Part shown: positions 2,181-62,295 of the stretch, piece after piece
Layout: each line of letters starts with the position of its first letter
Numbering within the stretch: position 1 is the stretch's first letter
Assembly: GCA_021737275.1 (NCBI GenBank)
Contig: JAIPEE010000001.1
Location: forward strand, 115,686 to 179,685
Source: Desulfobacterales bacterium
GTDB lineage: Bacteria > Desulfobacterota > Desulfobacteria > Desulfobacterales > JAIPEE01
Length of the DNA: 64,000 bases
Direction of reading: 5' to 3'
Made by a program: the position numbers and the translations under genes
Notes under the pieces: generated by a model
Databases searched by the model: none
What the model was told of the DNA's origin: nothing
What the model saw: the letters and a program-made list of their open reading frames with translations, nothing else

Positions 2181-2192
2181 AGTTTACACCTT

Positions 2193-2501: not shown

Positions 2502-2532
2502 GGTGTCCTCCTTGAATACTATTTTTAATGAT

Positions 2533-26168: not shown

Positions 26169-26195
26169 CTTGTCCTCCTTACGTTATGGGCTATA

Positions 26196-28639: not shown

Positions 28640-28702
28640 CAGGATCTCTCCCTTAATATAATAAATAAAATGTTTTCAGTTATCTGTTGCATTTTGCACT
28701 CC

Positions 28703-36442: not shown

Positions 36443-37057
36443 GTGCATATATCTGAAGGAATATTATCCGGGCCGGTTCTGATTTCCGGTATGGCCATTG
36501 CCGCTGCCGGGACAGCTATCGGACTGAAAAAACTCAGAAATGAAGACATCGCCAAAACAGGTATGCTGGCGGCATCTTTTTTTGTGGCCTCATTGATACA
36601 TATCCCCATTGGCCCGGCCGGCGTCCATCTGATCCTGAGCGGCATTGTCGGTCTTTTGCTGGGGTGGGCAGCTTTTCCGGCTATACTCGTTGCATTAACG
36701 CTACAAGCCACCTTTTTCCAACACGGCGGCATAACAACACTTGGTGTTAATACAGTGATAATGGCTTTACCTGCCGTAGTCTGTCATTATCTTTTTGCGC
36801 CTCTGATCTGGAAGAATAAAACCATATCCGCGATAGGTGCCTTTGGTGCAGGTAGTATAGCCATTGTTCTTAATGCTGTGATCGCCGGTCTGGCACTTAT
36901 ATATACGGATGAAGGATTATTCAAAGCTGCTGCCCTGATTATGGGTGCCCACCTTCCAGTCATGATTATAGAAGGTATTATCAGTATCTTTTGTGTAGCC
37001 TTTTTAAAAAAAGTTCAACCCGCTCTATTACCCGGATTTAAGAGCATCAACAATTAA
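36443..37057 (+). CDS. CbiM/NikM substrate-capture (S) component of ECF Ni/Co transporter
   Basis: The GTG start gives the N-terminus MHISEGIL, which is the metal-ligating Met1-His2 end conserved in CbiM/NikM. 204 aa, multi-TM. Confidence 0.8.
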   Translation: MHISEGILSGPVLISGMAIAAAGTAIGLKKLRNEDIAKTGMLAASFFVASLIHIPIGPAGVHLILSGIVGLLLGWAAFPAILVALTLQATFFQHGGITTLGVNTVIMALPAVVCHYLFAPLIWKNKTISAIGAFGAGSIAIVLNAVIAGLALIYTDEGLFKAAALIMGAHLPVMIIEGIISIFCVAFLKKVQPALLPGFKSINN

Positions 37058-37068
37058 GGAGCAGCACT

Positions 37069-37746
37069 ATGAATATTATTTCCGCTATCTCTGAATATGC
37101 CATCCCCGCAAAAGTGGGAATCCGGAAACAGTGTAACGCCAAAGATACTTTTTATAAGCTGCCTTTTACAGCTTCATTAGTAATATTACTGTTTTTTTTC
37201 CCCAATATTGCATTTGCCCACAATGTCTCTATTTTTGCATGGGAAGAAGGTGATACCGTATATACCCAAAGTAAATTCAGCGGCGGCAAACGGGTTAAAG
37301 GTGGCACTATCATCGTAACCGATCCGAATAACAATGTACTTCTTGAGGGTAAAACCGATGATGGCGGTTTGTTCTCTTTTATCCGACCCGGCAGCGGTTT
37401 GCTGAAAATCAAGCTTGATGCCGGCTTGGGGCATGCCAACTACTGGGAACTTCCGGCGCTGGAAGCTGACGTAATAACCGACTCAAACATCGAATTACCG
37501 GAAACAATAAATGCCACTGAAAATAAAACGCTTACCGTTATAACACCTGATATTCAAAAAGAAATTGACATCGCTGTTGAAAAAGCGCTGGATAAAAGGC
37601 TCAAACCCATTATGCAGACACTGGCGGATAATCAGCAACAAGGACCGGACCTCAGAGATATTCTGGGCGGGCTTGGCTATATTTTAGGCCTGATGGGTAT
37701 GGCAGCTTATTTTAAATATAGAAAGCAAAATAATATAATAAAATGA
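37069..37746 (+). CDS. NikL-like accessory membrane-anchored protein
   Basis: N- and C-terminal TM helices flank a beta-sandwich-like segment (GGTIIVTDPNNNVLLEGKTDDGGLFSF). Its position between M and Q matches NikKMLQO-type operons. Confidence 0.45.
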   Translation: MNIISAISEYAIPAKVGIRKQCNAKDTFYKLPFTASLVILLFFFPNIAFAHNVSIFAWEEGDTVYTQSKFSGGKRVKGGTIIVTDPNNNVLLEGKTDDGGLFSFIRPGSGLLKIKLDAGLGHANYWELPALEADVITDSNIELPETINATENKTLTVITPDIQKEIDIAVEKALDKRLKPIMQTLADNQQQGPDLRDILGGLGYILGLMGMAAYFKYRKQNNIIK

Positions 37747-38498
37747 TAAACGAACCCTTTGCTGCCGGCACGTCAATTATACACAAACTTGGACCTCGCT
37801 ACAGGATTGTCATTGCTGTGCTGTATGCCTTTATTGTTGCAGTTTCCTATCAGTTTCCCGTGCTGATACTTTCTCTTTGCATCTCTGCAATTATGGCAGT
37901 TTGTGCCCAACTGAATTTCAGGGCGCTCGTTCAACGCCTTTTGTTAGTAAATGTGTTCATCCTGTTTTTCTGGATTGTTCTGCCCCTGACCGGTGGTGGT
38001 GATATCCAATTTTATGTTGGCCCCCTGCCGGTTTATAAGAACGGCATTTTAATGTCTGCCCGGATCACATTGAAATCAAATGCTATTTTACTTTCCCTGA
38101 TCTCCCTGATTGCCACTATGCCGTTTTCTGTAGCCGGACAAGCGCTGCATGCACTTAAAGTATCTGACAAAATCGTACACCTGCTTTTAATAAGTTATCG
38201 GTATATTTTTGTACTTGAGCAGGAGTACCGACGCCTTATTACAGCAGCCAGAATCCGCGGCTTCAAAGCCGGAAACAACATACATACATTAAAAACAGTA
38301 GCGTACCTGGCGGGCATGCTGCTGGTCCGCGCGGTACGTCGTGCAGAGCGCGTACATCAGGCTATGCTATGCAGGGGATTTAAAGGGAAATATTACTGCC
38401 TGGCATCATTTAAACCATCTTATGGGAACTGGATATTTACGACCTTTATGGCAATTATTATTATCTGTCTTGCTGTAATGGAATGGGGAAATATATGA
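37743..38498 (+). CDS. CbiQ/NikQ (EcfT-type) transmembrane component
   Basis: 251 aa, multi-TM, with the ARIRGF/...RAERVHQAMLCRGF C-terminal motifs typical of CbiQ. ATGA overlap with the upstream gene. Confidence 0.75.
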   Translation: MINEPFAAGTSIIHKLGPRYRIVIAVLYAFIVAVSYQFPVLILSLCISAIMAVCAQLNFRALVQRLLLVNVFILFFWIVLPLTGGGDIQFYVGPLPVYKNGILMSARITLKSNAILLSLISLIATMPFSVAGQALHALKVSDKIVHLLLISYRYIFVLEQEYRRLITAARIRGFKAGNNIHTLKTVAYLAGMLLVRAVRRAERVHQAMLCRGFKGKYYCLASFKPSYGNWIFTTFMAIIIICLAVMEWGNI

Positions 38499-39223
38499 CG
38501 GAAAGTAAAACGTTAATACATCTTGAGAATGTTTTTTTTGCTTACCCTGATGGCAGAGCTGTATTAAATAACCTGCAGTTCGACTTTTACAAAAATGATA
38601 AAATCGGCCTGATGGGTGCCAATGGCACCGGCAAAACAACGCTTTTCCACGTTATCATGGGACTTAGAAAACCGGATAAAGGATCTATCACACTTTTTGG
38701 CAAACCGGTTTCAAAGGAAAAACATTTTGCAAAGGTTCGCCATCGCATCGGTTTATTATTCCAGGATGCAGATGATCAATTATTTTGTCCCACTGTTCTG
38801 GAAGATGTCACTTTCGGACCACTGAACCTCGGACTTTCAAAAAAAGAAGCCACACGCATAGCAAAAGAGACATTAACATCATTAGGCCTGGCCGGTTATG
38901 AAGAACGGATTACCCACAAGCTGTCCGGTGGTGAGAAGAGAATGGTTTCCCTTGCTACTGTTCTGGCAATGAAACCGGAAGCACTTCTACTTGATGAGCC
39001 CACCACAGGTCTGGATGATCAGACCAAGGCGCGCCTCACAGAGGTGCTTCAAGTCCTGGATATCTCGCGCATTGTTATTTCTCACGATTTTGATTTTCTT
39101 TCCAAAGTAACTGAAGGTGTTTACCTGATGGAAGATGGAAAAATTATCACGGATGCTGATATTCATGTTCATCAGCATGTTCATGCGCATGCGCATGGGG
39201 CACATAGGCATGAACATAAATAA
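38483..39223 (+). CDS. CbiO/NikO ATPase component with His-rich C-terminal tail
   Basis: Walker A GANGTGKTT, signature LSGGEKR and Walker B LLLDEPT. It ends DADIHVHQHVHAHAHGAHRHEHK. Confidence 0.85.
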   Translation: MGKYMTESKTLIHLENVFFAYPDGRAVLNNLQFDFYKNDKIGLMGANGTGKTTLFHVIMGLRKPDKGSITLFGKPVSKEKHFAKVRHRIGLLFQDADDQLFCPTVLEDVTFGPLNLGLSKKEATRIAKETLTSLGLAGYEERITHKLSGGEKRMVSLATVLAMKPEALLLDEPTTGLDDQTKARLTEVLQVLDISRIVISHDFDFLSKVTEGVYLMEDGKIITDADIHVHQHVHAHAHGAHRHEHK

Positions 39224-40304: not shown

Positions 40305-40931
40305 TTATCGCTCTGTTGTAGCAAGTTTCAAGGCAAGTCCTATAAAAACCGTACCTGCAATCCGATTCATTATTTTCTGTACATTTTCTGATCGATTAAG
40401 CCATTGTCCCAAAGAACCGGCCAGCAAAGCAATACTGCCAAACACCAGTATCGTTGCGAAATTAAATATGCCGCCCAGCATTATGAGCTGCAAGGTTAAA
40501 GTGCCGCGTGCCGGATCTGCAAACTGTGGTAAAAAAGCTAAAAAGAAAATGGATACCTTGGGGTTGGTGATATTCATAATGATCCCGCGTCGATATAGTT
40601 TCCAAAAATCAGAATTACCGTTTTGGTCCGCTTTTATCTCTGTTGCTGATGAACGAAAGGCTTGCCATGCGAGATAAAGCAGATAGCCTGCACCAAAAAG
40701 TTTAAGTACTGTAAAAGCAATTGCAGACACCTGGAAAATAACGGCCACTCCGAATGCAACCGCCATGGTGTGGCCGACAAGCCCGGTACACAAACCAAGC
40801 GTCACAATCAGGCCCGACAGTTTTCCACGCAACGCTGATTGCGTCAAAACAAAGATATTATCCGGCCCTGGCGCAAGGGCAAGCAGAACAGATGCCATAA
40901 AAAATGTTGCCATAATTTCAATTGATATCAT
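40305..40931 (-). CDS. LysE/RhtB family amino-acid exporter
   Basis: 208 aa. N-terminal LAPGPDNIFVLTQSALRG is typical of LysE/RhtB. Confidence 0.75.
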   Translation of the reverse strand: MISIEIMATFFMASVLLALAPGPDNIFVLTQSALRGKLSGLIVTLGLCTGLVGHTMAVAFGVAVIFQVSAIAFTVLKLFGAGYLLYLAWQAFRSSATEIKADQNGNSDFWKLYRRGIIMNITNPKVSIFFLAFLPQFADPARGTLTLQLIMLGGIFNFATILVFGSIALLAGSLGQWLNRSENVQKIMNRIAGTVFIGLALKLATTER

Positions 40932-40958
40932 TATTAAATTTTCCTTTGAACTGACGCC

Positions 40959-41723
40959 TTAATACCGCAGTTTACATCCTTTTTGGAGCGTCACAAGTGT
41001 CAGTGTACTCACCAGGATAAAAAAGGCTGAAACAATAACCGCACTCACCATTACAGCGTGATCCGAAACGCCAAGGAAACCATATCGAAACCCGTCAATC
41101 ATATAAAAAAGCGGATTCAGCATGGAAACTTTTTGCCAGAAGCCCGGAAGAGATTTAATGGAGTAAAAAGATCCGCTCAGAAACGCCAGCGGCAGCACAA
41201 CAAAATTCTGAAACGCGGCAATGTGGTCCCATTTATCTGCCCATATGGCTGAAAGCAGGCCGAGAGAGCCCAAGACACCGCTGCCGATAAAAGCAAAAAA
41301 CAGAAGGATCCATATATTATAAATATCCGGTGTAATAAAAAAAACACAAATCAGAAATGCACTGATCCCCACCAGTACGCCCCTGACAATTGCCGCACAG
41401 GTATAGGCAATAAAAACTTCAAGGTTTGAAAGCGGCGCCAGCAGCATAAAAACAATGTTCCCGTTCAGTTTGGACTGGAAAAGGCTGGATGAATTATTGG
41501 CAAAGGCATTCTGGATTACCGACATCATCACCAGGCCGGGAACCAGAAAAAGAGTATATCCCACCCCGTCATAAATTTCCACATGCTCTGAAAGAACTGA
41601 TGCAAACACCAGAAGATACAGCAGTATCGTTATAACGGGCGTAACAATGGTCTGTATCGCCACTTTTAGAAACCGCCAAACTTCCTTGGAAAAAAGCGTA
41701 TACATCCCGCGCAGATTAATCAT
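40959..41723 (-). CDS. ABC-2 type transporter permease
   Basis: 254 aa, 6 TM helices, ABC-2 profile. 8-nt overlap with the ATPase gene. Confidence 0.7.
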   Translation of the reverse strand: MINLRGMYTLFSKEVWRFLKVAIQTIVTPVITILLYLLVFASVLSEHVEIYDGVGYTLFLVPGLVMMSVIQNAFANNSSSLFQSKLNGNIVFMLLAPLSNLEVFIAYTCAAIVRGVLVGISAFLICVFFITPDIYNIWILLFFAFIGSGVLGSLGLLSAIWADKWDHIAAFQNFVVLPLAFLSGSFYSIKSLPGFWQKVSMLNPLFYMIDGFRYGFLGVSDHAVMVSAVIVSAFFILVSTLTLVTLQKGCKLRY

Positions 41724-42636
41724 TATTCTCTCCTGTCAGTGATATAAAAATCTCTTCAAGCCCCGGCACTTCCGTTCGTAAATCGCTGAAAGAAACTTTG
41801 GCCGCATAAAGCGCCTCAAGAATATTCCCGATACGGTCCTTTTCCCTGTGGAGACGAAGTGTAACATTCCTGCCTTTAAAGGAAACGGCCATATCACGAA
41901 TCTTTTCCGGTAACGCCGAACTCGAATCCTTCAGTTCCAGATGCAGATAACTGTAGGGATAACGGGATAACAGGGATTTTGTGGTTTCATTGGCTATCAG
42001 TTTTCCATGATCGAGAATGGCAATCTTCTCACATAACGCCTCTGCCTCTTCAAGATAATGAGTTGTCAAAAGAATGGTGTGACCATCTCCATGAAGTTCC
42101 CTGGTAAACTCCCATAAAACCTTTCGAAGCTGAACATCCACACCTGCCGTCGGCTCATCCAGTACAACCACGCTGGGCTTATGGACAAGTGCCTGGGCAA
42201 TCAGCACGCGCCTTTTCATACCGCCGGAAAGTTTCATCATGTTTTCATCAGCTTTACCGCCAAGATCCAATCGTTCAAGCAGCTCGTCAATCCAGGGATA
42301 ATTTCCGGAACCGAGCCCGAAATAACCGGACTGAAGCCGAAGCATCTGCCTGGCCGAAAAAAACGGATCATAGGCCAGTTCCTGTGGTACGACACCAAGG
42401 GCATTTCTTGCCTTACGCCATTTTCGACGGACATCGTTTCCCATTACATCAATATTACCGTCACTGGCATGAGTCAGGCCGGCCATGATATTTATCAGCG
42501 TAGATTTTCCCGCACCATTGGGACCGAGAAGGCCGAAAAAACTGCCCTTGTCAATTGAAAAGTCCACATGGCTCAATGCTTTAAGAGAACCGTAATTCTT
42601 TGATATATCAGAAACCTTTACTGCCGGGATTGTCAA
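41716..42636 (-). CDS. ABC transporter ATP-binding protein (ABC-2/DrrA-like)
   Basis: GPNGAGKST, LSGGMKRR and VVLDEPTAG motifs. Confidence 0.85.
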   Translation of the reverse strand: MTIPAVKVSDISKNYGSLKALSHVDFSIDKGSFFGLLGPNGAGKSTLINIMAGLTHASDGNIDVMGNDVRRKWRKARNALGVVPQELAYDPFFSARQMLRLQSGYFGLGSGNYPWIDELLERLDLGGKADENMMKLSGGMKRRVLIAQALVHKPSVVVLDEPTAGVDVQLRKVLWEFTRELHGDGHTILLTTHYLEEAEALCEKIAILDHGKLIANETTKSLLSRYPYSYLHLELKDSSSALPEKIRDMAVSFKGRNVTLRLHREKDRIGNILEALYAAKVSFSDLRTEVPGLEEIFISLTGENND

Positions 42637-42756
42637 TTTTATAATCTCTCCATTTCTGTTTTTGTTTTTTGAAAACCAATAATGACATTATCATTTTAAA
42701 GTGACTTATGCCATATGTCCGGTAAAAAAAATTATATTGTTGAAAAGGTGGGGGGG

Positions 42757-42788
42757 ATCATAACCGGACCGGGACGTCCGGTTATGAT
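42757..42788 (-). terminator. 13-bp perfect hairpin downstream of the ATP-grasp::GNAT gene (possible terminator or operon boundary)
   Basis: atcataaccggac (42757-69) and gtccggttatgat (42776-88) with a 6-nt loop. On the minus strand it is followed by a C-run and then a T-rich tract, not an immediate U-tract. Confidence 0.35.
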
Positions 42789-42817
42789 ACTGATACGGAA
42801 GATCTTGTATTGCAGAT

Positions 42818-44452
42818 TTAAATTTTACCGGTTGATCGGGCTGTCAGCTCTTTTGTCGTCTTCCTGAATTCCTGTGGCAGCGTCTTACAGTAAACCATCT
42901 TGTTGTCTCCGGATGAATAGAAATCATTAAATGTCGCTTCAAGAAGATATCCATGCTTTTCGTAAAAAGCCCGTGTCCCTGAATACTGGGGTCTTGAGGC
43001 GGTTTCTACATATAGCCGTGAGCCACCGGCGGCCGAAACACTGTCTTCAACCTTTTGAAGCAGAATTTTTCCCAATCCTGCCCCCTGACAAGAAGGCTGA
43101 ACTGCAATCCAGAATAAATCATAGCTGGATGTTGTACACGCAACCGGCCCATAACACGAAAATCCCATAAGTGAATCTTGAAAATCTGCCAAAATAAAAT
43201 AATATCCGCTTTTACTTCCCCGCTGCAGAGAATCCTGAAGTATTTCACCGAGCACACTTTTTTCTGAAGGGAGAAAAAAGCCCGTATTATCAATCAGTGA
43301 ACGAACTTTAGAAACATCATCAGGATGAGGCTCATATCTCAGCATAATGCCATCCAACGAGAACTGCTGTGTTCCGGTATCCACAGAATCGGTTTGTGTA
43401 TCTGAGCGTTTGCTCTTACAGTATATATCTGGTGTTATGTATTCGCTTTTTGCTGAAAAAATAATTCGTTCAACAGCTTTCGCATATTTAATCCCGGCCA
43501 TATCAAGTGCAGCCGAAAAACCGGCATCTGGTGACAAACAGGGATTTGTATTTACTTCCAGTATCCATGGATTTCCTTTATGGTCCACCCGGAAATCAAC
43601 CCGGGCATACCCTTTCAACCCCATATTTTCCCAGCAACGTTTAGCCAGTGAAGTCATCGTTTTAAGTAATTCTTTGTCTTCGGCAGGGAAGTCAAATCGC
43701 CGGGGAGTATGGTGATATTCAAATGAACCCTCTTCCCATTTGGCCTTGTACCCGACAATGTGAAGCATATTTTCAGGATAATCTTCAAAAACAATTTCCG
43801 CTGGAGGCAATACCTGGACCTGACCGTTCTCATCCTGAAGCAGAGAGAGATTAAATTCACGCCCGTCAATATAACACTCAGCAAAGCACGCTCCCCCCAG
43901 GGATGGTGCATGTTTTTTCATAAGATCCAGAACGTCACGAATATTGCCATTTACTAACTTGTCTTCATCCAGACCCGACGAGGCATGATCACACAACGAT
44001 TTGATCAGCCAGCTGTTTTTTGAAAACGATCCGGCGCTTATTTCAGGCCGGTATATGCCCGGCAGGACCGGCGGCCAGGGCGGTATCCACTTGGGTGTCG
44101 GCAATCCGGTGGCCATCATCAGCTCCTTGGCCATTACCTTTTGAGAGGTAATTCTGATTGACTCAGCCGGCGAACCGGTATAACGCAACCCCATAGTGTC
44201 TAATAGTGACGGCACAACATCTATCAGGCGATCATGCCCTTCCAGTGATTCCACCAGGTTGAATACACAATCCGGTTTAGCTTTTTCCAGCGCATACTTT
44301 AATTCCAAAAGATTAAGATTGCAGGAAATACGGATTGCTTCATGACCCAGTTCTGTCAGTGCATCCGATACCGCATTAACCTGCATCAGTACATCCAGAT
44401 CATCCAGAGAGCTGTCCTCTTCAACAGCATTATAGACAACAACTATCCGCAT
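42818..44452 (-). CDS. fusion protein: Ddl-like ATP-grasp ligase (N-terminal ~330 aa) plus GNAT acetyltransferase (C-terminal ~160 aa)
   Basis: 544 aa. A pre-ATP-grasp/ATP-grasp region ends ...ARVDFRVDHKGNPWILEVNTNPCLSPDAG. The GNAT core is WIAVQPSCQGAGLGKILL...AFYEKHGY. Confidence 0.7.
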   Translation of the reverse strand: MRIVVVYNAVEEDSSLDDLDVLMQVNAVSDALTELGHEAIRISCNLNLLELKYALEKAKPDCVFNLVESLEGHDRLIDVVPSLLDTMGLRYTGSPAESIRITSQKVMAKELMMATGLPTPKWIPPWPPVLPGIYRPEISAGSFSKNSWLIKSLCDHASSGLDEDKLVNGNIRDVLDLMKKHAPSLGGACFAECYIDGREFNLSLLQDENGQVQVLPPAEIVFEDYPENMLHIVGYKAKWEEGSFEYHHTPRRFDFPAEDKELLKTMTSLAKRCWENMGLKGYARVDFRVDHKGNPWILEVNTNPCLSPDAGFSAALDMAGIKYAKAVERIIFSAKSEYITPDIYCKSKRSDTQTDSVDTGTQQFSLDGIMLRYEPHPDDVSKVRSLIDNTGFFLPSEKSVLGEILQDSLQRGSKSGYYFILADFQDSLMGFSCYGPVACTTSSYDLFWIAVQPSCQGAGLGKILLQKVEDSVSAAGGSRLYVETASRPQYSGTRAFYEKHGYLLEATFNDFYSSGDNKMVYCKTLPQEFRKTTKELTARSTGKI

Positions 44453-45461
44453 GGATGACCTCCTGCAGCTCAGGACCTGTCTTCACCCGTTTTATGGCTG
44501 ATGTCAGTATCCGGTCAATAAGCGTAATATATGGGATACCCAGTTTTGAACATAAAATCGGCAGATCGGAATGTTCCGGATGAAGCCCTGCCAGCGGATT
44601 AACTTCAATGAAGGACGGCGCGCTGTTTTCATCACACCGAATATCAACTCTTCCGCCGTCCCGGCAGCCAAGTACCCGCCATACAGAAAGTGCGAGGGCT
44701 TCCGCATCTGCAATAACAGGACTCATATCTGCCTTTACCAGCCTATACTCAACAAGTTCTTCACAACGCTCTTTATTAACATAAGAATATACATTCTTTT
44801 CAGCGCATGAAAGTAAAATGATCTCCAGGGTACCGACAACTTCGGCATCAGATCCGGTACCGATAATTCCTACCGTAAATTCACGTCCGGGCAAAAAACG
44901 CTCCACAATCAGGGGCGGTGTGTATTTTTCCAGAAGAAAACGACAAACATGGTCAAGTTGCTCCGGCTGATAAATGACCGAATTTTCTGTAATCCCTTTC
45001 CCTGTTCCTTCCGCAACAGGCTTTATAAAATAAGGCGGTTCAAATGTCACCCTGCCGGCATCTTCAATAGTATATATTTCATGAAACTCCGGTGTTGCCA
45101 GTCCTGCATCCCGGACCACCCGCTTGGTCATGCCTTTATGCAGGGAAAGTGCCATAACCAGAGGATCTGAAAAAGTATAGGGAATCCCATAAACATCCAG
45201 TATGGCAGGAATCTGGGCTTCACGGCCAATTCCCTTCAAACCCTCTGCGATATTAAAAACCAGGTCCCACCGATCTCCGCATGCAAGTCTTCCAATAAGC
45301 TCCTCAGCATTTCCAATAGGGTCTGCTTTGTGTCCAAGGCTTTCCAGGGCTTCTGCCAGCGATTCAATCGTATCCAACCGATCGAATTCGGCGGTTTCCT
45401 CTTCACTGTATCCCTTTGCCAGGTAAGCCTGGCGCAAATCATATGTCAGACCGATTTTCAT
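44430..45461 (-). CDS. D-alanine--D-alanine ligase-family ATP-grasp enzyme (substrates unknown)
   Basis: 343 aa. ...YFIKPVAEGTGKGI..., GREFTVGIIG and GGRVDIRCDENSAPSFIEVNPLAGL are ATP-grasp motifs. 23-nt overlap with the downstream fusion gene. Confidence 0.7.
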   Translation of the reverse strand: MKIGLTYDLRQAYLAKGYSEEETAEFDRLDTIESLAEALESLGHKADPIGNAEELIGRLACGDRWDLVFNIAEGLKGIGREAQIPAILDVYGIPYTFSDPLVMALSLHKGMTKRVVRDAGLATPEFHEIYTIEDAGRVTFEPPYFIKPVAEGTGKGITENSVIYQPEQLDHVCRFLLEKYTPPLIVERFLPGREFTVGIIGTGSDAEVVGTLEIILLSCAEKNVYSYVNKERCEELVEYRLVKADMSPVIADAEALALSVWRVLGCRDGGRVDIRCDENSAPSFIEVNPLAGLHPEHSDLPILCSKLGIPYITLIDRILTSAIKRVKTGPELQEVIHADSCCL

Positions 45462-45542
45462 TTTCCCCTCCGCTTAAAAATTAAAATCATATTTTTTTTA
45501 TTTTTGATGAGATCCGTATATTGCCCGATCCGGATACTTATG

Positions 45543-46853
45543 CTATAAAAAACCGTCATCATATCCGTCCGATCTGTCGGGATAACTGTAAAACTTATTT
45601 TTATAATTTTTAAAAATTATCTCTTCCTCATTACGGCTGCTGATATAATCCGGCATCAATGGAATTTTTCCACCGCCGCCGGGGGCATCTACCACGTATG
45701 TGGGCAGGGCATACCCGCTGGTGAAACCCCGTAAACCTTTGATAATTTCGAGACCTTTTGATATCGGCGTACGGAAATGGCCGGAACCCGCTATGGGGTC
45801 ACACTGATAGAGGTAGTAGGGACGTACACGCATTTTAAGAAGATGGTGAACCAGCGCTGTCATTGTTTCAACAGAATCATTGATACCTTTAAGTAAAACG
45901 GTCTGAGACCCAAGGGGTATTCCGGCATCTGCTAACATTTTACAGGCACGATAGGCTTCGGGTGTACACTCATCCGGGTGGGTAAAGTGGAGACTCATCC
46001 AGAGGGGGTGGAATTTTTTAAGCATTCGGACAAGTTCCGGTGTTATCCGCTGTGGGAGTACAGCCGGCACTTTTGTGCCGATCCGGATAATCTCCAGGTG
46101 AGGAATCTGCCTCAGGTTGCCGAGCAGCCAGGACAAACGTTCCTCATGCATCGTCAGCGGGTCACCGCCGGATACAATCACATCTCTTATGGCAGGTGTG
46201 TTTTTAATATACTCAAGGCCCTTTTTAAGAGAGTTCAAAGACAGATTCATCTTTCCGTTTCCTACTGCTCGTGAGCGGGTACAGTAACGGCAATAGGTTG
46301 AGCAGTAATCCGTTACCATGAACAGCGCTCTGTCCGGATACCGGTGAACGATGCCGGGTACGGGGCTCTGATCATCTTCGCATAGAGGATCATTGCTTTC
46401 GCAGGGCATATAATTATATTCATATTTCGTAGGCACAACTGACCGTCTTAACGGGTCCTGCGGATTATCCACAGCAAGCAAACTCATATAATACGGTGTA
46501 ATAGACAGCGGAAGCGACCTGTCTACAGAAATTGACTCCGCTTGTGAAAGCGTCAGATAACTTTTCAATTCATCAAGGCTGCGTATTGAATTTCGAATCT
46601 GCCAGCGCCAGTCATTCCATAATTTATTTGGTACTTCAGGGTAATATGTGCGTCTGAACAGAACTGTTTTGGGACTGCTTCCCGGTTTAAGTGGAATTTT
46701 TAGAGATGTTTTTTTACTTAACTGCAGACATGGCAGGACTACTTCATGCCGAGCTTCATCGGGCAATGGTATTTCAGAACTATCAGGAGGGTCCTCATCC
46801 TGCTCATCAGCAACATCTTTTTCCACGAACTTGACATCCATCAGTGGTGCCAT
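45543..46853 (-). CDS. kamA: lysine 2,3-aminomutase (KamA/AblA-family radical SAM, PLP-dependent)
   Basis: CSTYCRYCTRS radical-SAM site and VVDAPGGGGK PLP-lysine motif. Both Asp residues that bind the lysine epsilon-amine in Clostridium LAM are present (YQCD and VVDAPGGGGK contexts). There is a ~65-aa acidic/Pro-rich N-terminal extension. The stop is TAG. Confidence 0.85.
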   Translation of the reverse strand: MAPLMDVKFVEKDVADEQDEDPPDSSEIPLPDEARHEVVLPCLQLSKKTSLKIPLKPGSSPKTVLFRRTYYPEVPNKLWNDWRWQIRNSIRSLDELKSYLTLSQAESISVDRSLPLSITPYYMSLLAVDNPQDPLRRSVVPTKYEYNYMPCESNDPLCEDDQSPVPGIVHRYPDRALFMVTDYCSTYCRYCTRSRAVGNGKMNLSLNSLKKGLEYIKNTPAIRDVIVSGGDPLTMHEERLSWLLGNLRQIPHLEIIRIGTKVPAVLPQRITPELVRMLKKFHPLWMSLHFTHPDECTPEAYRACKMLADAGIPLGSQTVLLKGINDSVETMTALVHHLLKMRVRPYYLYQCDPIAGSGHFRTPISKGLEIIKGLRGFTSGYALPTYVVDAPGGGGKIPLMPDYISSRNEEEIIFKNYKNKFYSYPDRSDGYDDGFL

Positions 46854-47280: not shown

Positions 47281-48696
47281 ATGATGAAGGATAATATTTT
47301 TACCAGAATGGGTGACGGTGAGCGCATTAAGATGTCTCTTCCCAAAGTTAAGGAAGAAATTGCAGCAGGCGTCCGGGATGCATCTGAAAGAGGTCAAATT
47401 CCTGAATTAAGCGCTGAAGAGCAGGAAAAGCTCTTTGATATACTGGCAGAATCAAGCCGCACGGTCAGTGTTGATCCCGGTGAAGAGGTCATTGTCACTG
47501 ATGACGGTGCTGCCATGTTGACCTATTGCGGCCCGGATGATAGCGGTGTCGGTATACCTATAAGCCGTGAAACAGCCCACCTGGTTTATGAAAGAGTATG
47601 TGCAGCAGATTCTTCGACTGCCGGCCATATTGATTTTAGTTTCAAACCGGCAAAAGCGGTCATCAATCATGAAATGAATGATTATTTTACGATTTCTCAG
47701 AAAACAACCATTCCTCTTTTCTATGGATCACAACCCAACATGGGACTTTACTTTCAGCCGGACGGCCCCTTCCCAAACCCGACGGAACTGATGCCCATGG
47801 GCAAGATTGATGAAGCGCTGGCATCAATGGAAAAAGCAGCCGAATATATGATTGATGATTTAGTATTTTTTGGTAAGGAGATGGCAGAAATCGGGTGTGA
47901 GGGACTTAACTTTGACACATCCGGTTCTGTCGGAGATGCTGATTTTTATGCCGCTCTCCAGTCTATACGGAATTTAAAAGAAGTGTTGCCTGATTTGCCC
48001 ATTATTATCGGCTCAGCATCTGAATTTATCATGGGCATGCACGGAAATATCGAGTTTGACGGCCGGCGTCTGGCCGGAATGTACCCGCACCAGCAGGCCC
48101 AGGTTGCTGAAGCGGCCGGCGCCAGCATATATGGAATGGCGGTAAATGTTGTTACAACGAAATCGTTTCCATGGAACCTTGCCCGTGCACTTACATTTAC
48201 CAAAGCAACTGTTGAGTCGTCTAACATTCCCGTACATCCCAATGTCGGGATGGGCGTATGCGGTATTCCCATGTTTGATCTCCCGCCCATTGATTGTACC
48301 TCGCGTGTAGCAAAAGCACTGGTACAAATCGGAAAAGCCGATGGATTGTAGGTTGGTGTCGGAGATCCTTTTGGTATGCCGATAACGCACATTATGGCAT
48401 CTGGAATGGGAGGTATGCGAACCGCAGGAGATCTTGTGGCATGGACGCAGATGACCCTTAAGATGAAAACTCAGGATGCAAAAAAATATGTTGCAGAGAA
48501 ACTCGGTATTGATGTCCTCAGTCTGACCGATGAAGATGTAATGCGCCCGCTCAGAGAGGAACTGGGTATTGGTGTTCTTACGGCTGTTGTAGGAAGGCCT
48601 GTCGGTATAACGGCTAAGTTAAAAATTTCCGAAATACTGGATATCAAAATAAATTCCGTACAGCGATTTAAAGAGCTGGTGGGATTAGCCATATAA
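47281..48696 (+). CDS. mtbB: dimethylamine:corrinoid methyltransferase with one in-frame UAG (predicted pyrrolysine at codon 357)
   Basis: ORFs 47281..48351 and 48376..48696 share one frame and are joined across TAG 48349-51: ...[40 protein letters not shown].... The whole 471-codon product resembles MtbB end to end (RMGDGERI, GVGIP, GHIDFSFKP, IPLFYGSQPNMGLYF, GMHGNIEFDGRRLAGMYPHQQA, NLARALTF). ATG 47284 is an equally good start. Confidence 0.85.
48349..48351 (+). other. in-frame amber codon, predicted pyrrolysine insertion site
   Basis: gat gga ttg TAG gtt ggt gtc gga gat cct. Conserved MtbB sequence continues directly after the TAG. Confidence 0.8.
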
Positions 48697-48932: not shown

Positions 48933-50591
48933 ATGACCAATCTTACAGAAAAAAAAAGGAATTATTCAAGACCCTGGCTGATAATGGCAATTCTGGTGAT
49001 CAGCCTGTTTATGCTGATCGTTCAGACTGCGCCTGATGCCAGGGCGGAAAGTGAATTGCGCGTCGGCTGGCTGGCTGATGAAATGCTTTCATCACTCGCA
49101 TGTAATGATGCCTGGCAGTATGAAACAATGGGATGCATGTTATGGCAGCTGCTTTATGATCAGGTCTGGTTCTATGGCCCACCACCGCAATACAAACATT
49201 TTCTCAGCGCAATTACAAGCTATGAAACCGAGGATAACATTAATTTCAGATTTCATGTCAGGCAGGGTATGACCTTTCATGACGGCAAACCGGTAACAGC
49301 AAAAGATTTTGCGTTTACCTTTGAACACCTTCCGGTATCCAACCCGATCTGGGCTTATAACAGTTCAACAATTGTACCCAACTCAGCTGTTGTTGTTGAT
49401 GATTATACTCTTGATTTTACAATGAAATTGCTGCTTACGCCCAAATATCCGCCTTTTGACTGGTTTCCTGTTCTACCGGAGCACCTCTGGCGGCGTTACA
49501 AGTTTGATATTGAAAAATTTAAAAACTCAAAAGCTATTGGATCCGGACCGTTTATGCTGGACTCATTTGAAGCCGGGAAATACGCATCCTTTAAAAAATT
49601 CGAGGGCTACTGGGATAAAAAACCGAGAGTTGATAAAATTGTTTTTAAAACATACGGCGGCTCGGATGCGCTGGGTATGGCCATTAAACGCGGTGAAATT
49701 GATATGATGGGTTATGGCGGTGTGAGTCCTTTATCTGCAAAACTGCTGGAAAAAGTAGAAAATGTAAAACTGATTGTTTCACCTGGAATTGAAGTTAAAA
49801 CGTTGACATTTAATATGTTTCCGGAGGGCCCCTTACAGGACCTGACTGTCAGAAAAGCCTTTGTTCATGCTATTAATAAAAAACGTATTGTCGACATGGT
49901 TTATCATGGTCAGGCTGATGAACAAGACAGTTTTATCTATCCGGAACTTGCCAATTACAATCCCAACCTGCCAAAATATGAATTCAACATTGAAACATCC
50001 AAACAACTGCTTGATGAAGGTGGCTATACAGATTCAGATGGTGATGGCTTCAGAAATGATCCGAATTCAGGTAAAAATCTGGAATTCAAGTTTCTGACAT
50101 CCTCCAATGATACGGCAGGAGTTAAAATGGCAACCCTTATCAGAGAGCAGATGAAAGAAATCGGTGTCGGCATCACAATCAATGTTGTAGACATAGATAC
50201 CTTTTATGATCTGGTATACTACCCTCAAAATCCGGTATGGGATATCTCTTTTGTCTCAGAAGAACCCGGACCATATGCCAACTGGATATGGGAATTCATG
50301 AGAAGCTGGAATGATGAATGGGCCATGGGATGGAATACATCATACTATGATAATCCGGAGTTTGACAAGATACTGAATACTTTCAATTCTTCAGCAGATC
50401 TGGAGAAAGCAAAAGCCCTTTGTCATCAAATGCAGTTAATAATGGCAACGGAACTGCCCTATTACGTCATCTGCAGACCGCACACAATTGATCCGGTCCG
50501 GACAGACAAGCTGACTGGTTATGTCTCATATATGGGCGGTGTATCCAACTGGATCAATCCGTTATCTTATTTTAACGTTCATCCTAAATAA
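48933..50591 (+). CDS. ABC transporter substrate-binding protein, family 5 (peptide/nickel/opine type), orphan
   Basis: 552 aa with an N-terminal anchor/signal and an SBP_bac_5-like length and profile (e.g. FHDGKPVTAKDFAFTFE). No cognate permease or ATPase is adjacent. Confidence 0.7.
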   Translation: MTNLTEKKRNYSRPWLIMAILVISLFMLIVQTAPDARAESELRVGWLADEMLSSLACNDAWQYETMGCMLWQLLYDQVWFYGPPPQYKHFLSAITSYETEDNINFRFHVRQGMTFHDGKPVTAKDFAFTFEHLPVSNPIWAYNSSTIVPNSAVVVDDYTLDFTMKLLLTPKYPPFDWFPVLPEHLWRRYKFDIEKFKNSKAIGSGPFMLDSFEAGKYASFKKFEGYWDKKPRVDKIVFKTYGGSDALGMAIKRGEIDMMGYGGVSPLSAKLLEKVENVKLIVSPGIEVKTLTFNMFPEGPLQDLTVRKAFVHAINKKRIVDMVYHGQADEQDSFIYPELANYNPNLPKYEFNIETSKQLLDEGGYTDSDGDGFRNDPNSGKNLEFKFLTSSNDTAGVKMATLIREQMKEIGVGITINVVDIDTFYDLVYYPQNPVWDISFVSEEPGPYANWIWEFMRSWNDEWAMGWNTSYYDNPEFDKILNTFNSSADLEKAKALCHQMQLIMATELPYYVICRPHTIDPVRTDKLTGYVSYMGGVSNWINPLSYFNVHPK

Positions 50592-50616
50592 GAAATATCC
50601 GGAAATAAACAAAAAA

Positions 50617-50653
50617 ACAGGCGCTTTCTGAAAAAAAAAGCGCCTGTTTTTTT
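50617..50653 (+). terminator. rho-independent (potentially bidirectional) terminator
   Basis: acaggcgcttt (50617-27) pairs with aaagcgcctgt (50637-47), followed by TTTTTT. An A-run precedes it. Confidence 0.75.
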
Positions 50654-50970: not shown

Positions 50971-52080
50971 ATGAACAAAACAGCATTATTGATATGGCTT
51001 TGTCTGCTTTTGCTTATGTTCTCAGCATCAACGGAAGCCCGGGCTGAAAAGCAGATCACGGATGCCGCCGGTAAAATAATTGTCATCCCCGAAAAAGTGG
51101 ATCATATCATCTGCTCCGGTTCCGGATGCCTCAGACTTGTGACCTACTTAGGGGCCCAGGATCTTGTGGTGGGGGTGGATGACATTGAAAACCTTAATAA
51201 TAAATTCGATGCCCGCCCTTACTCTCTTGCCAACCCTCAATTTAAAGACCTTCCGGTTTTTGGCGGGTTTCGGGGGCAAGACGTTCCTGAAAAAATCATC
51301 AGCCTTCCCACCCTGCCCCAAGTGATTTTTAAAACCTATGCATCTTCGGGATATGACCCGACCAAGCTTTCAAAAAAAACCGGGATCCCCGTCATCACAC
51401 TTGAATATGGAGATCTCGCCCACAACAGGAAGGACTTTTATACGGCCCTGACCATTCTGGGCCGTGCGCTGGACAGAGAAACCCGTGCCGGGGAATTGAT
51501 TGCCTTTTTCGATGGCCAGATTAAGGAGTTGGAAAACCTGACAAAAAACGTTCCTAACGCCTGGAAAAAGACTTGTTTTGTGGGCGGCATCGCCTTTAAG
51601 GGACCCCACGGTTTCCAATCCACGGAACCTCAGTATCCACCCTTCCAATTCATCAATGCCGAAAATATAGCAAAACCTGCCGACAATGCAAAAAAACTTC
51701 GACAGTGCAATTTTTCCAAAGAAAAAATCCTGACCATGAACCCCGAAGTGCTTTTTCTTGATCTTTCCACCCTCCAGATGGGTGAAGATCAGGGTGGCCT
51801 TTACGAGCTCAGAAACGACCTTGTCTACCGGGAGCTGACTGCCGTGCAAAATGGAAATGTATTCGGGGTACTGCCCTATAACTGGTATAGTCAGAACTCC
51901 GGATCCATTCTGGCCGACGCCTGGTTTATCGGCAAGATTCTTTATCCGAAACAATTTATGGACATCGTTCCCGAAAAAAAAGCGGACGAAATTTATACCT
52001 TTCTTCTGTCAAAACCGATGTTCAAACAGATGAACACATCCTTTAAGCAGATGGTGTTTAAACAGATCGACTTGAATTAG
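50971..52080 (+). CDS. periplasmic binding protein of iron-siderophore/cobalamin-type ABC importer (Peripla_BP_2; BtuF/FecB-like)
   Basis: Signal peptide, then ...IICSGSGCLRLVTYLGAQDLVVGVD..., typical of class III SBPs. It is followed by FecCD-type permease and ATPase genes. The stop is TAG. Confidence 0.7.
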   Translation: MNKTALLIWLCLLLLMFSASTEARAEKQITDAAGKIIVIPEKVDHIICSGSGCLRLVTYLGAQDLVVGVDDIENLNNKFDARPYSLANPQFKDLPVFGGFRGQDVPEKIISLPTLPQVIFKTYASSGYDPTKLSKKTGIPVITLEYGDLAHNRKDFYTALTILGRALDRETRAGELIAFFDGQIKELENLTKNVPNAWKKTCFVGGIAFKGPHGFQSTEPQYPPFQFINAENIAKPADNAKKLRQCNFSKEKILTMNPEVLFLDLSTLQMGEDQGGLYELRNDLVYRELTAVQNGNVFGVLPYNWYSQNSGSILADAWFIGKILYPKQFMDIVPEKKADEIYTFLLSKPMFKQMNTSFKQMVFKQIDLN

Positions 52081-52088
52081 GAGCAGGT

Positions 52089-53159
52089 ATGCATTTTGAC
52101 AACGGCGGCGTACCCGGGGAATACATACGCTATACATTGGAAAAATTTCTGTTTATTGTTCTGGCCCTGGCAACCCTTATCCTGATCATCACTGCCAGTA
52201 TTTCACTGGGCGCTGTACACATCAAGTTCACGGACGTGTTCAACACCCTTTTGAAAAACAACGTGATCAAACAATTTGATCTTATCATATGGAATATACG
52301 GGTGCCCCAGACCCTGACGGCAGTGGTCGCAGGCGCAGGCCTTGCCGGATCCGGCACCGTTATGCAATCTGTGTTAAGAAACCCCATAGCTTCGCCTTTT
52401 ACCCTCGGCATCGCCCATGCCGCAGCATTCGGAGCAGCCTTTTCAGTAATGATCCTGGGATCAGGCGTTATGTCAGGCACCCTTGGAGATGCCGTCAACA
52501 TCTCCAGCCCGATGCTTACCCTCATGTCCGCCTTTGCCTTTTCCATGGGAACCGCCTGCCTTATCACCTGTATTGCAAAAATTAAAAACTCATCTCCTGA
52601 AGTCATGGTCCTTACCGGTGTGGCACTGGGAGCTTTGTTCACGGCCGGCACTATGCTGCTCCAGTTTTTTGCCGATGATGTCCAGCTTGCCGCCATGGTC
52701 TTCTGGACTTTTGGAGATACGGCCAGAACAGACTGGAACGATCTTGCCTTCCTGTCCGTAATCACAATCCCGGTCATGATATATTTTCTGGCCAATTCAT
52801 GGAATTACAATGCCATGGATATCGGCGATGAAACCGCCAAAGGATTGGGGGTGCGGGTCGAAATGGTAAGACTCTCCGGCATGATGGCGGCCTCCCTTGT
52901 CACATCGGTCATCATCTCCTTTGCCGGAATCATCGGATTCATAGGGCTTGTGGCCCCCCATATTGTCAGAAGAATCATTGGAGATGATCACCGTTTTCTC
53001 ATGCCTGCATCCATCCTGACCGGGGCCATTGTCCTGACAGCATCGGATATTGCAGCCAGGCTGGTGCTTTTACCCCATGTCCTGCCCGTTTCCATTTTCA
53101 CTTCCTTTCTGGGCGCACCCGTATTTATATATCTTATTATCAAGGGGAATAAAAAATGA
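52089..53159 (+). CDS. FecCD/BtuC-family ABC permease
   Basis: 356 aa, ~10 TM helices. RNPIASPFTLGIAHAAAFGAA and GFIGLVAPHIVRR motifs. Confidence 0.85.
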   Translation: MHFDNGGVPGEYIRYTLEKFLFIVLALATLILIITASISLGAVHIKFTDVFNTLLKNNVIKQFDLIIWNIRVPQTLTAVVAGAGLAGSGTVMQSVLRNPIASPFTLGIAHAAAFGAAFSVMILGSGVMSGTLGDAVNISSPMLTLMSAFAFSMGTACLITCIAKIKNSSPEVMVLTGVALGALFTAGTMLLQFFADDVQLAAMVFWTFGDTARTDWNDLAFLSVITIPVMIYFLANSWNYNAMDIGDETAKGLGVRVEMVRLSGMMAASLVTSVIISFAGIIGFIGLVAPHIVRRIIGDDHRFLMPASILTGAIVLTASDIAARLVLLPHVLPVSIFTSFLGAPVFIYLIIKGNKK

Positions 53160-53944
53160 TACTTGATGTGAATAAACTTGCCTTTACCTACAAGCGCCAT
53201 GACATCCTCAACGATATCGGTTTTACCATTCAGCAAGGAGAAATCACCGTCATCCTCGGCCCCAACGGCGTAGGGAAAACCACCCTGCTTAAATGCCTCA
53301 ACGGCATCCTCTCTCCCCAAGAAGGTAATATCCTTATCAAGGATAAAAATATCAGAACCATGACCATCAAAGAGATAGCCCGGCAGGTCGCCTATGTGGC
53401 TCAGAAAAGTGACGCGGCCGGAATAACCGTTTTTGATGCCGTGCTCATGGGCAGAAAGCCCCATATCAATTACAGGGCCGGGAAAGCAGATCTCAAAAAG
53501 GTGGATGCGGTCATCCGCCACCTGAACCTTTCCGGGATCAGCCTGAAATACCTGAATCAGTTAAGCGGAGGAGAACTTCAAAAGGTCTGCATTGCAAGGG
53601 CCCTGGTTCAGGAGACAGACCTTCTGCTTATGGATGAACCCACTGCAAGCCTGGACCTGAAAAACCGGATCCATATACTGGAACTGATCCGACACATTAT
53701 TAAAGGCCACCATATAGCGGCGGTCATGACCATGCACGATCTGAACACCGCCATGAGATATGCGGACAAGTATATTTTTTTAAAGGACCGAACCATCTAT
53801 TCGGCCGGAGATATCCGGGATGTCACCCCTGAAATGGTGGAAGAGGTTTACGGTATCAGGGTCGACATCATGCATCACAAAGGGCTTCCGGTAGTCATTC
53901 CCGTAAACGGTTCCGATATTCCCGGAACAAAACAGGCAGCCTGA
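53156..53944 (+). CDS. ABC ATPase (FecE/BtuD-like)
   Basis: GPNGVGKTT, LSGGELQK and LLMDEPTASLD motifs. ATGA overlap with the permease gene. Confidence 0.85.
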   Translation: MILDVNKLAFTYKRHDILNDIGFTIQQGEITVILGPNGVGKTTLLKCLNGILSPQEGNILIKDKNIRTMTIKEIARQVAYVAQKSDAAGITVFDAVLMGRKPHINYRAGKADLKKVDAVIRHLNLSGISLKYLNQLSGGELQKVCIARALVQETDLLLMDEPTASLDLKNRIHILELIRHIIKGHHIAAVMTMHDLNTAMRYADKYIFLKDRTIYSAGDIRDVTPEMVEEVYGIRVDIMHHKGLPVVIPVNGSDIPGTKQAA

Positions 53945-61004: not shown

Positions 61005-61946
61005 TTAAACCATACAAGCCTTATAAATTTCTTCAATATGACGTTGATCCGACCCACAACAACCACCCAGAATGTTTAAATGCGGCAACCTTTCTTTCAG
61101 CGCCTTATACTGCTGCCCAAACTCTTCCGGATTTCCCTCATCAAAGTCATCGGCCGCTTCCATCTCGGCATGACTCCGTGTAGAGGCATTTGCCCTGATT
61201 CCCCGGATTCTTTCAAGCCAGGGTTCACCAGAAACCAATATTCCCTCAAAATGGGTCGGATGAGCACAGTTAATCATATAATAAAGTGGTAAATTGTCTG
61301 TCGCCTTATCCGTTTTTTCGATGGCTTCCTTCAGGGTCAGGCCGCAATCCAGGTTTCCATCTGTCTCAACTGCAAAAGAGATCACCACCGGCATATTTAA
61401 TGATTTTGCTGCATGACATACCCCGATAGCCTCTTCCGTATTGGTTAAGGTACAGGCTGTTACAAAGTCCGCATCTGTTTCGCTGAATATTTTTAGTTGT
61501 GCAAAATGATACTTTTCAGCTTCTTTCTCACTCATCATTTCTCCCGGAATATAGCCATCTATTCGTGGTCCTATACTGCCGCAAATAACAATTTTATTTT
61601 TTTCAGTTTCAAAGCGGTTTCTCATTTCAAGGAGTACTTTAATTGCTTTTCGGTTTGCATTGCCCAAAGCCTCTCTTGAATATCCAAGTTTTTCACCCCA
61701 ATCGGAACTGGCACGGAAAGTGACACTTTCAAAAATGAAATTCACATTATATTTTTCAACTAATTCTCCATAAGAAGAATAGTAGTTGCGAAGATGCTCA
61801 CACCCTTCATCATTTTTGTAAAGGTCAAAGGCGGCAAATTCAGGCAAATCAAGACCGTATTTAAAGATAAGGGTGGTTTCCGGCCCACCCTCCATTAAGA
61901 ACATATCTCCATTCAACTGGGGTAAATTTTTTCTGTACTTAAACAT
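61005..61946 (-). CDS. homocysteine S-methyltransferase-family (Pfam S-methyl_trans) protein
   Basis: Zn-thiolate motif cysteines: ICGSIGP and C-terminal ILGGCCGS. The start is placed at MFKYRKNL after GGAGGG. Confidence 0.7.
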   Translation of the reverse strand: MFKYRKNLPQLNGDMFLMEGGPETTLIFKYGLDLPEFAAFDLYKNDEGCEHLRNYYSSYGELVEKYNVNFIFESVTFRASSDWGEKLGYSREALGNANRKAIKVLLEMRNRFETEKNKIVICGSIGPRIDGYIPGEMMSEKEAEKYHFAQLKIFSETDADFVTACTLTNTEEAIGVCHAAKSLNMPVVISFAVETDGNLDCGLTLKEAIEKTDKATDNLPLYYMINCAHPTHFEGILVSGEPWLERIRGIRANASTRSHAEMEAADDFDEGNPEEFGQQYKALKERLPHLNILGGCCGSDQRHIEEIYKACMV

Positions 61947-62295
61947 TTTCCCTCCAATCAATCCCATAAACATTTACGCATGAATCACAGGACATTTTTT
62001 ACACAAATAAATCAATTCAAAATATATAATGCCCGAAATTTTTGATAAAGCAACATAAGAAATTACGGTTATTTTCATTGTACAGCCCCTTTAACATTAA
62101 CAGGCTGATCTTACATAAAACTATTGTCAGACCGGGAATAAATTGCCTTGTTTATTAAATTAGCCGGGTTAAAAAAATCTGTATTTCTTGTAACATACTA
62201 AAATCTATTAGATAATCACCATAGAGATGTTCTGGCATCTAATTTGCTTATTATTAATGATGAACAAATTTCTTTTAACGTTTGGAGGAAAACAA

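Follow-up and report, generated by a model that had tools for sequence, protein, structure and literature searches.

A predicted pyrrolysine-type dimethylamine methyltransferase gene (mtbB) isolated from its usual partner genes in a Desulfobacterales genome

The 64,000-nt stretch of DNA analyzed here (the window; GenBank assembly GCA_021737275.1, contig JAIPEE010000001.1, positions 115,686 to 179,685 of the forward strand) contains an mtbB gene interrupted by a single in-frame amber codon. The contig belongs to a metagenome-assembled genome (MAG) deposited as "Desulfobacterales bacterium", in agreement with the type of host proposed in an earlier reading made from the sequence alone (the sequence-only reading). 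The gene very probably encodes a functional pyrrolysine (Pyl)-type dimethylamine:corrinoid methyltransferase of a marine-type Desulfobacterales bacterium, and its UAG codon is predicted to be decoded by machinery encoded elsewhere in the genome. The features of the gene, in window positions, are the following:

47281 to 48696, + strand: mtbB, dimethylamine:corrinoid methyltransferase, read as one recoded open reading frame (ORF) of 471 codons plus a stop codon
47273 to 47277, + strand: Shine-Dalgarno-like GGAGG, separated by 3 nt from ATG 47281 and by 6 nt from ATG 47284
48349 to 48351, + strand: in-frame TAG (UAG), predicted pyrrolysine codon, number 357 from ATG 47281 and 356 from ATG 47284
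48352 to 48693, + strand: C-terminal 114 codons of MtbB after the UAG, 64 to 69% identical to relatives and keeping 30 of 30 near-invariant columns (defined below)
48349 to 48448, + strand: match to Rfam RF02509 PYLIS_2 ("pyrrolysine insertion sequence mtbB"), 100 nt beginning at the UAG

Translation of 47281 to 48696 (+) yielded 472 codons, with the TAG at 48349 to 48351 (codon 357) as the only internal stop and a terminal TAA at 48694 to 48696; besides that TAG, no further stop or frameshift was found in the gene. Both the ORF list and the translation confirmed that the two ORFs described previously, 47281 to 48351 and 48376 to 48696, lie in the same frame, parted by the TAG and by eight sense codons (VGVGDPFG) that precede ATG 48376. 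In GenBank these pieces are annotated as two hypothetical proteins, K9L30_00780 (MCF8067098.1, 356 amino acids [aa]) and K9L30_00785 (MCF8067099.1, 106 aa), with neither the family name nor Pyl recoding given; records from the same MAG contig include MiaA (MCF8067071.1) and a KamA-family protein (MCF8067097.1). The same DNA, with the same TAG, was present in the independent Logan assembly of SRR12088349. The GC content of mtbB was like that of the neighboring genes (42.8% for the window), without compositional anomaly, and a signal of horizontal transfer was therefore rejected.

The gene call in the Logan assembly begins at the second Met of the frame, ATG 47284, which is probably the true start, given that relatives align from residue 2 of the window product, that their N-terminal fragments are 355 aa long and that GGAGG is better spaced for this codon than for ATG 47281. 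With this start, the Pyl residue would be number 356 instead of 357.

The joined 471-aa product matched Pfam PF09505 (Dimeth_Pyl) with an E value of 9.1e-184 over profile positions 4 to 462 of 463, and the NCBIfam equivalog TIGR02368 with 518.5 bits (cut-off, 369.1), residues 7 to 465 of the query falling on positions 6 to 464 of the 466 in the profile. The locus is a full-length MtbB-family member, and the MtbB identity that had been assigned to the whole length of the product was thus borne out. Codon 357 corresponds to position 356 of TIGR02368, and the C-terminal fragment alone already matched PF09505. About 1,000 MtbB clusters were present in the protein database, nearly all of them ending at 355 aa, whereas a search of solved structures by sequence gave no relative of the product in the PDB.

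Relatives were obtained by scanning one genome per species (GTDB representatives), and the 80 best loci were named L001 to L080. The homologous codon was TAG in 79 of the 79 loci in which it could be read, and after it the frame of the relatives ran for 110 to 117 codons with the motif [IV]G[VT]GD..GM..H....MGG.RT.GDLV. In an alignment of 74 full-length products, the X of the window product fell in a single column, and all the sequences had X in it. The TAG is therefore at the conserved Pyl position, as the sequence-only reading had claimed, and the PYLIS_2 model likewise aligned from the UAG. The corresponding residue of Methanosarcina MtbB is presumably number 356, which agrees with the position in the TIGR02368 profile. 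Within the window, no other pair of long ORFs split by a single TAG was found.

Near-invariant columns were defined by an invariance of 97% or more among the 73 remaining sequences of the alignment (n = 107). The window product kept 106 of them, 76 of 77 before the TAG and 30 of 30 after it, a retention that equals or beats that of most relatives; conservation had been claimed to run straight across the TAG, and so it does. Identity to the relatives was 64 to 69% after the TAG versus about 63% before it. The alignment shows purifying selection on both sides of the codon.

A neighbor-joining tree with the Firmicute clade as its root placed the window copy on a solitary deep branch beside the L033/L050/L045-L057 group; this copy was the deepest-branching member of the set, with the longest terminal branch. 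Its best identity was 63.8%, whereas every other sequence in the set had a neighbor at 68% or more; identity was 56 to 64% to the non-Firmicute relatives sampled and 44 to 47% to the Firmicute copies. A long terminal branch is expected if the close relatives of the genome are missing from the species representatives. For its part, the root-to-tip distance (0.369, versus a median of 0.372) showed no rate acceleration. The gene does not appear to be decaying, since the near-invariant columns are kept, the root-to-tip distance lies at the median, and there is neither a second stop or frameshift nor a GC anomaly. A sense codon in close relatives, together with decay of this copy, had been named as evidence that would count against recoding; all the relatives read had TAG, and no decay was seen.

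The PYLIS_2 match scored 98.5 bits (gathering score, 36) and covered model positions 1 to 100 of 100 without gaps, positions 1 to 3 being the UAG. It was the sole Rfam family at or above its gathering score in the window; the model itself presumably originates from the work of Theil Have et al. The fold stability of the 100 nt was not unusual (minimum free energy z-score, -0.71). Over 76 sequences, the Rfam structure had 74% of its cells paired, compared with 32 to 41% in slid controls, in a region of highly conserved coding sequence. Clear compensatory change was restricted to pair 75:90, whose columns are both third codon positions and covary (CG in 17 sequences, AU in 16, UA in 14, UG in 10 and GC in 7). 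From 48421 to 48440 (+), that is, +73 to +92 after the UAG, ACnGCCGGAGATCTGGTn was kept even at synonymous sites across the 76 bacterial mtbB genes. These data hint at a small conserved hairpin at +73 to +92 within the PYLIS_2 region. The remainder of the Rfam structure is weakly supported, and the match would mostly reflect coding conservation.

Translation would start at ATG 47284, and UAG 48349 would be read as pyrrolysine by Pyl-tRNA(CUA) and PylS, these two and the PylBCD biosynthesis proteins being encoded elsewhere in the genome; the expected product is of about 470 aa and 51 kDa. By analogy with characterized methylamine methyltransferases, the Pyl side chain would bind and activate dimethylamine, and the methyl group would pass to the cognate corrinoid protein, encoded at another locus, whose Co(I) would accept it; a second methyltransferase would then transfer it to tetrahydrofolate. 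Oxidation of the methyl group could follow through the reverse Wood-Ljungdahl pathway, with sulfate reduction coupled to it, a scheme put forward for related Desulfobacterales (PMC8318568). We infer the insertion of Pyl, the existence of pyl genes elsewhere in the genome and the substrate. Pyl decoding is supported because the pyl machinery travels with the mtbB family (PylSc in 24 of the relatives' loci, PylB in 23, PylC in 23 and PylD in 20), and because Pyl-MtbB proteins together with complete pyl sets have been published for Desulfobacterales-type bacteria.

The absence of partner and pyl genes from the 64 kb, which had also been claimed, withstood every search made. A Pfam scan of every window ORF of at least 150 aa revealed no B12-binding domain, URO-D/MtaA-type methyltransferase, RamA, class II aminoacyl-tRNA synthetase, PylB, PylC or PylD. 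In a stricter test, ORFs from the loci of the 80 relatives were clustered, and the recurrent neighbor families were named with NCBIfam and compared by tblastn with the six frames of the window, the queries including 51 MtbC-type, 24 PylSc, 23 PylB, 23 PylC and 20 PylD sequences. These families (MtbC, MttB, PylS/B/C/D and RamA) found only mtbB itself in the window, with the sole exception of a superfamily-level ATP-grasp match to the PylC queries (E = 9e-5). No gene for a cognate corrinoid protein (MtbC type, TIGR02370/NF041607) was found in the window by tblastn or Pfam.

Similarly, ARAGORN detected no tRNA genes in the window. The positive control consisted of 26 loci from relatives, of which 19 yielded tRNA-Pyl(CUA), 9 of the 10 non-Firmicute loci among them. 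With a covariance model made from the pylT genes of 18 relatives and run with filters off, the best score in the window and its downstream extension was 10.8 bits (E = 2.9), and no pylT was found. The extension itself, about 8.9 kb beyond the downstream end of the window (L082), contained no pyl, corrinoid, MttB-family or RamA gene. A profile was also built from 8 Desulfobacterota-type PylSc sequences; among the best 120 of 4,210 matches, none carried both NCBI and Logan sources, as most of the MAG's proteins do, and none was tied to the MAG. In the 80 relatives' loci, by comparison, the following genes lay within 10 kb of mtbB:

MttB-family genes: 69 loci
MttB-family, Pyl-type fragment ending at TAG: 49 of the 69
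MttB-family, uninterrupted non-Pyl type: 27 of the 69
MtbC-type corrinoid protein: 36 loci
PylSc: 24 loci
PylB: 23 loci
PylC: 23 loci
PylD: 20 loci
RamA/AcsV-type activase: 16 loci

Every relative with both flanks available had at least one partner gene within 10 kb, and the only relatives without one were four loci in which the contig ends within 60 bp upstream of mtbB. The full isolation of this mtbB is genuinely unusual with respect to its relatives. A corrinoid gene, on the other hand, lay near mtbB in just 17 of 61 non-Firmicute loci (within 10 kb, as far as the flank was available), so that a missing neighboring mtbC is by itself nothing rare. Hence the isolation that had been put forward as notable is so as regards the absence of any partner, but not as regards the missing mtbC.

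The genes that do surround mtbB are the following:

48933 to 50591, + strand: SBP_bac_5 family solute-binding protein gene, directly 3' of mtbB (PF00496, E = 8e-74)
50611 to 50653, both strands: bidirectional intrinsic-terminator-like hairpin with a 17-bp stem and A and T runs on either side
50971 to 53944, + strand: Btu/Fhu-type importer (periplasmic-binding protein, FecCD, ATPase), from Pfam
42818 to 46853, - strand: divergent cluster upstream, with a KamA-family radical-SAM aminomutase, a Ddl-like ATP-grasp protein and an ATP-grasp::GNAT fusion (544 aa)
40305 to 46853, - strand: the whole divergent cluster, including an ABC-2 exporter pair and a LysE exporter, from Pfam/NCBIfam
36443 to 39223, + strand: CbiMNQO cobalt transporter (CbiM, CbiQ, ABC-ATPase) upstream of mtbB, from Pfam
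61005 to 61973, - strand: PF02574 homocysteine S-methyltransferase-like gene, 12 kb away

No canonical terminator was found in the 236-nt spacer between mtbB and the SBP_bac_5 gene, and the two are possibly cotranscribed. The hairpin at 50611 to 50653 (fold z-score, -6.24; 0 of 200 shuffles as stable) would close such a unit. The SBP_bac_5 gene has no adjoining Opp/Dpp-type permease genes. Homologues with 43 to 46% identity lay near mtbB in three sister-clade loci, namely, L045 (1727 to 3373), L055 and L056, and in L045 the surroundings of mtbB also comprised uninterrupted non-Pyl MttB-family genes, a GCV_T folate-binding protein, saccharopine dehydrogenases and an amine oxidase. Further downstream of the window mtbB, a TrmO-like protein and a DAO-family oxidoreductase are encoded.

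The divergent KamA/ATP-grasp cluster bears a superficial resemblance to PylB/PylC chemistry. Its radical-SAM and ATP-grasp genes were considered as PylB and PylC and rejected, as the former is KamA (AblA-like), the latter are Ddl-like, and no PylB or PylC model matched them; true PylC sequences matched the ATP-grasp genes only at the E value of 9e-5 given above. The KamA-family protein is closest to lysine 2,3-aminomutase AblA (487 bits, under the cut-off of 525). None of the 80 relatives had KamA, ATP-grasp, DAO or TrmO homologues beside mtbB. The cluster looks like a separate pathway, perhaps for a beta-amino-acid or N-acetyl-peptide compound of the osmolyte (compatible solute) kind.

Several observations weigh against a functional Pyl-MtbB in this genome. 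TAG is the stop codon of 8 of the 52 genes in the window and hence an ordinary stop; pylT, pylS, pylB, pylC, pylD and the genes for a corrinoid protein, a RamA-type activase and an MttB-family protein are all absent from the 64 kb and the roughly 8.9 kb downstream; and among roughly 77 copies with informative flanks, the window copy alone lacks a nearby partner. Given that TAG is still an ordinary stop, readthrough of UAG must be partial or context dependent, and UAG is ambiguous in this genome rather than reassigned. Ambiguous UAG is the usual situation in bacteria. The share of TAG among the stop codons is uninformative as to TAG avoidance.

The isolation of the gene would also be accommodated by a stranded relic, in which the Pyl machinery was lost or never present and the TAG terminates, leaving a nonfunctional 355-aa fragment of a relocated or horizontally acquired mtbB. 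In its favor, pyl, corrinoid, MttB-family and RamA genes are all missing nearby, unlike the case of every relative with both flanks, no terminal branch in the set is longer (best identity, 63.8%), and GenBank records two hypothetical proteins. We nevertheless regard a relic as unlikely, considering that the near-invariant columns are kept before and after the TAG, that there are no extra stops or frameshifts and the composition is normal, that the root-to-tip distance lies at the family median, and that a long branch is to be expected when close relatives are missing from a set of species representatives. The deep solitary branch and the unique context could also correspond to a divergent orphan paralogue, equally dependent on Pyl, that acts on another secondary amine with the SBP_bac_5 protein or the neighboring amine-metabolism genes as partner. 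The SBP_bac_5 gene follows without a canonical terminator and has homologues near mtbB in the three sister-clade loci, where mtbB stands beside non-Pyl MttB-family, GCV_T and amine oxidase genes. Such a paralogue seems quite unlikely, however: nearly all the family-invariant residues are retained, which speaks for an unchanged chemistry and substrate, the score exceeds the TIGR02368 equivalog cut-off, and KamA, ATP-grasp, DAO and TrmO homologues occur next to mtbB in 0 of 80 relatives. In a broader version, mtbB would lie outside classical methylamine catabolism, recruited with SBP_bac_5 to another amine, and, in the extreme, no canonical pylBCD would exist and the KamA/ATP-grasp/ATP-grasp::GNAT cluster would supply a lysine-derived residue; in this extreme version the divergent cluster mirrors the logic of PylB (radical-SAM lysine mutase) and PylC (ATP-grasp ligase). 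This broader version, its extreme form included, is very unlikely.

Two further explanations dispense with Pyl. Translation might stop at the TAG and restart at ATG 48376, with the 355- and 106-aa polypeptides assembling into a split enzyme: the ATG lies 8 codons past the TAG, with GGAG 11 nt upstream of it, and gene callers predict both pieces. Nevertheless, GGAGAT is the coding sequence for the family motif's invariant Gly-Asp, and Met 48376 belongs to a GM dipeptide conserved in non-Firmicute relatives and absent from Firmicute copies, so that both features are accounted for by protein conservation. As, moreover, neither the catalytic Pyl nor 8 conserved residues would be present in the product, we give a split enzyme hardly any probability. 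A sequencing or assembly artefact as the source of a false stop, which is only a general possibility in a MAG, is still less credible and practically negligible, with the same TAG in the GenBank contig and in the Logan assembly, and it is effectively refuted by the TAG at this codon in 79 of 79 homologues. A functional Pyl-type mtbB decoded by machinery encoded elsewhere therefore remains our preferred reading.

Pyl-containing MtbB proteins have been described before in hosts of this kind. The delta-1 symbiont of the worm Olavius algarvensis, a Desulfobacterales-type bacterium, has six Pyl-MtbB and two MttB proteins, pylT, pylSn, pylSc and pylBCD (Zhang & Gladyshev 2007, PMC1976440). Pyl-MttB and Pyl-MtbB also occur in a group of marine Desulfobacterales with a cosmopolitan distribution (Kivenson et al. 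2021, PMC8318568). The window shares with Olavius delta-1 and Deltaproteobacteria-bbl the protein family, the in-frame UAG at the Pyl position and the host order (PMC1976440, PMC8318568) and, presumably, the methyl-to-tetrahydrofolate route feeding sulfate reduction. Its GC content (42.8%) is similarly low to the 41% of the Deltaproteobacteria-bbl MAGs (PMC8318568). In those systems, however, mtbB is clustered with mttB, a corrinoid protein gene and often pylT, pylS and pylBCD, none of which occurs within 47 kb upstream or about 24 kb downstream of the mtbB studied here.

Among the best 80 genome matches, 58 were Desulfobacterota-type and other non-Firmicute MAGs, labeled Desulfobacterales, Desulfobacteraceae, Desulfosarcina, Thermodesulfobacteriota, Myxococcota, Gemmatimonadota, Aminicenantes and similar, and the protein database contained more than 4,200 PylSc-like clusters (4,210 profile matches). 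The sequence-only reading had considered a Desulfobacterales host notable because Pyl decoding was documented in only a few bacterial lineages. That view is contradicted by the published systems (PMC1976440, PMC8318568) and by these 58 matches, as well as by the database counts for MtbB (about 1,000) and PylSc-like clusters. Pyl appears to be far more widespread among bacteria than "a few lineages" would suggest, even allowing for possible binning errors. The novelty is modest and consists in a member that branches deeply (identity of 64% or less), is fully unlinked and is misannotated in GenBank. It is one more Pyl-MtbB, unusually divergent and unlinked, in an already large set from marine Desulfobacterota, which are considered competitors of methanogens for methylamines. 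The case illustrates that an amber-interrupted mtbB is recognizable from raw sequence; new questions would arise only if the genome proved to be devoid of pyl genes.

The MtbB1-3 proteins of Methanosarcina barkeri, reportedly characterized as dimethylamine methyltransferases by Paul, Ferguson and Krzycki in 2000, share with the window product the family model TIGR02368, a single amber codon about three-quarters of the way along, and PYLIS_2 starting from the UAG. The archaeal genes form mtbB-mtbC operons, and the methyl group is passed on to coenzyme M via MtbA for methanogenesis, whereas tetrahydrofolate is the acceptor expected in a sulfate reducer. The Firmicute loci (L062 to L080, from Emergencia timonensis, Anaerovoracaceae and Clostridia MAGs) share the TAG at the same codon and the conserved C-terminal segment but differ in their lower identity (44 to 47%) and in their compact clusters of mtbB, mtbC, RamA/AcsV-type activase, pylSc, pylB, pylC, pylD and pylT. 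Besides Desulfobacterota and Clostridia, mtbB genes with TAG at the Pyl codon were also seen in MAGs labeled Myxococcota, Gemmatimonadota, Aminicenantes, Acidobacteriota, Phycisphaerales and Spirochaetaceae. In several of all these MAGs, pylT and pylS/B/C/D lie no more than 10 kb from mtbB.

In the wider window, cobalt- and corrinoid-themed genes surround the orphan mtbB, namely, those for the cobalt importer, the Btu/Fhu-type importer and the PF02574 protein. In principle, the PF02574 protein could serve as an acceptor of corrinoid-bound methyl groups. A search for cobalamin riboswitches ahead of the Btu-like and Cbi transporters was negative. A cluster at 23310 to 30219 (-) encodes HdrA-like (658 aa), MvhD (FlpD) and HdrB-C-like (CCG, 4Fe-4S) proteins together with NAD-binding and FrhB-like subunits; its ORFs showed no interruption by an in-frame TGA or TAG. 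Clusters of the Hdr/MvhD type have been reported in sulfate reducers. At the start of the window lies a glycogen-metabolism block, in which an ORF at 3 to 2183 (-), of at least 727 aa and running off the window start, possibly encodes a glucan phosphorylase and is accompanied, at 2196 to 6834 (-), by a small ORF and a 1,433-aa alpha-amylase/glycogen-debranching (GDE_N/GDE_C) fusion.

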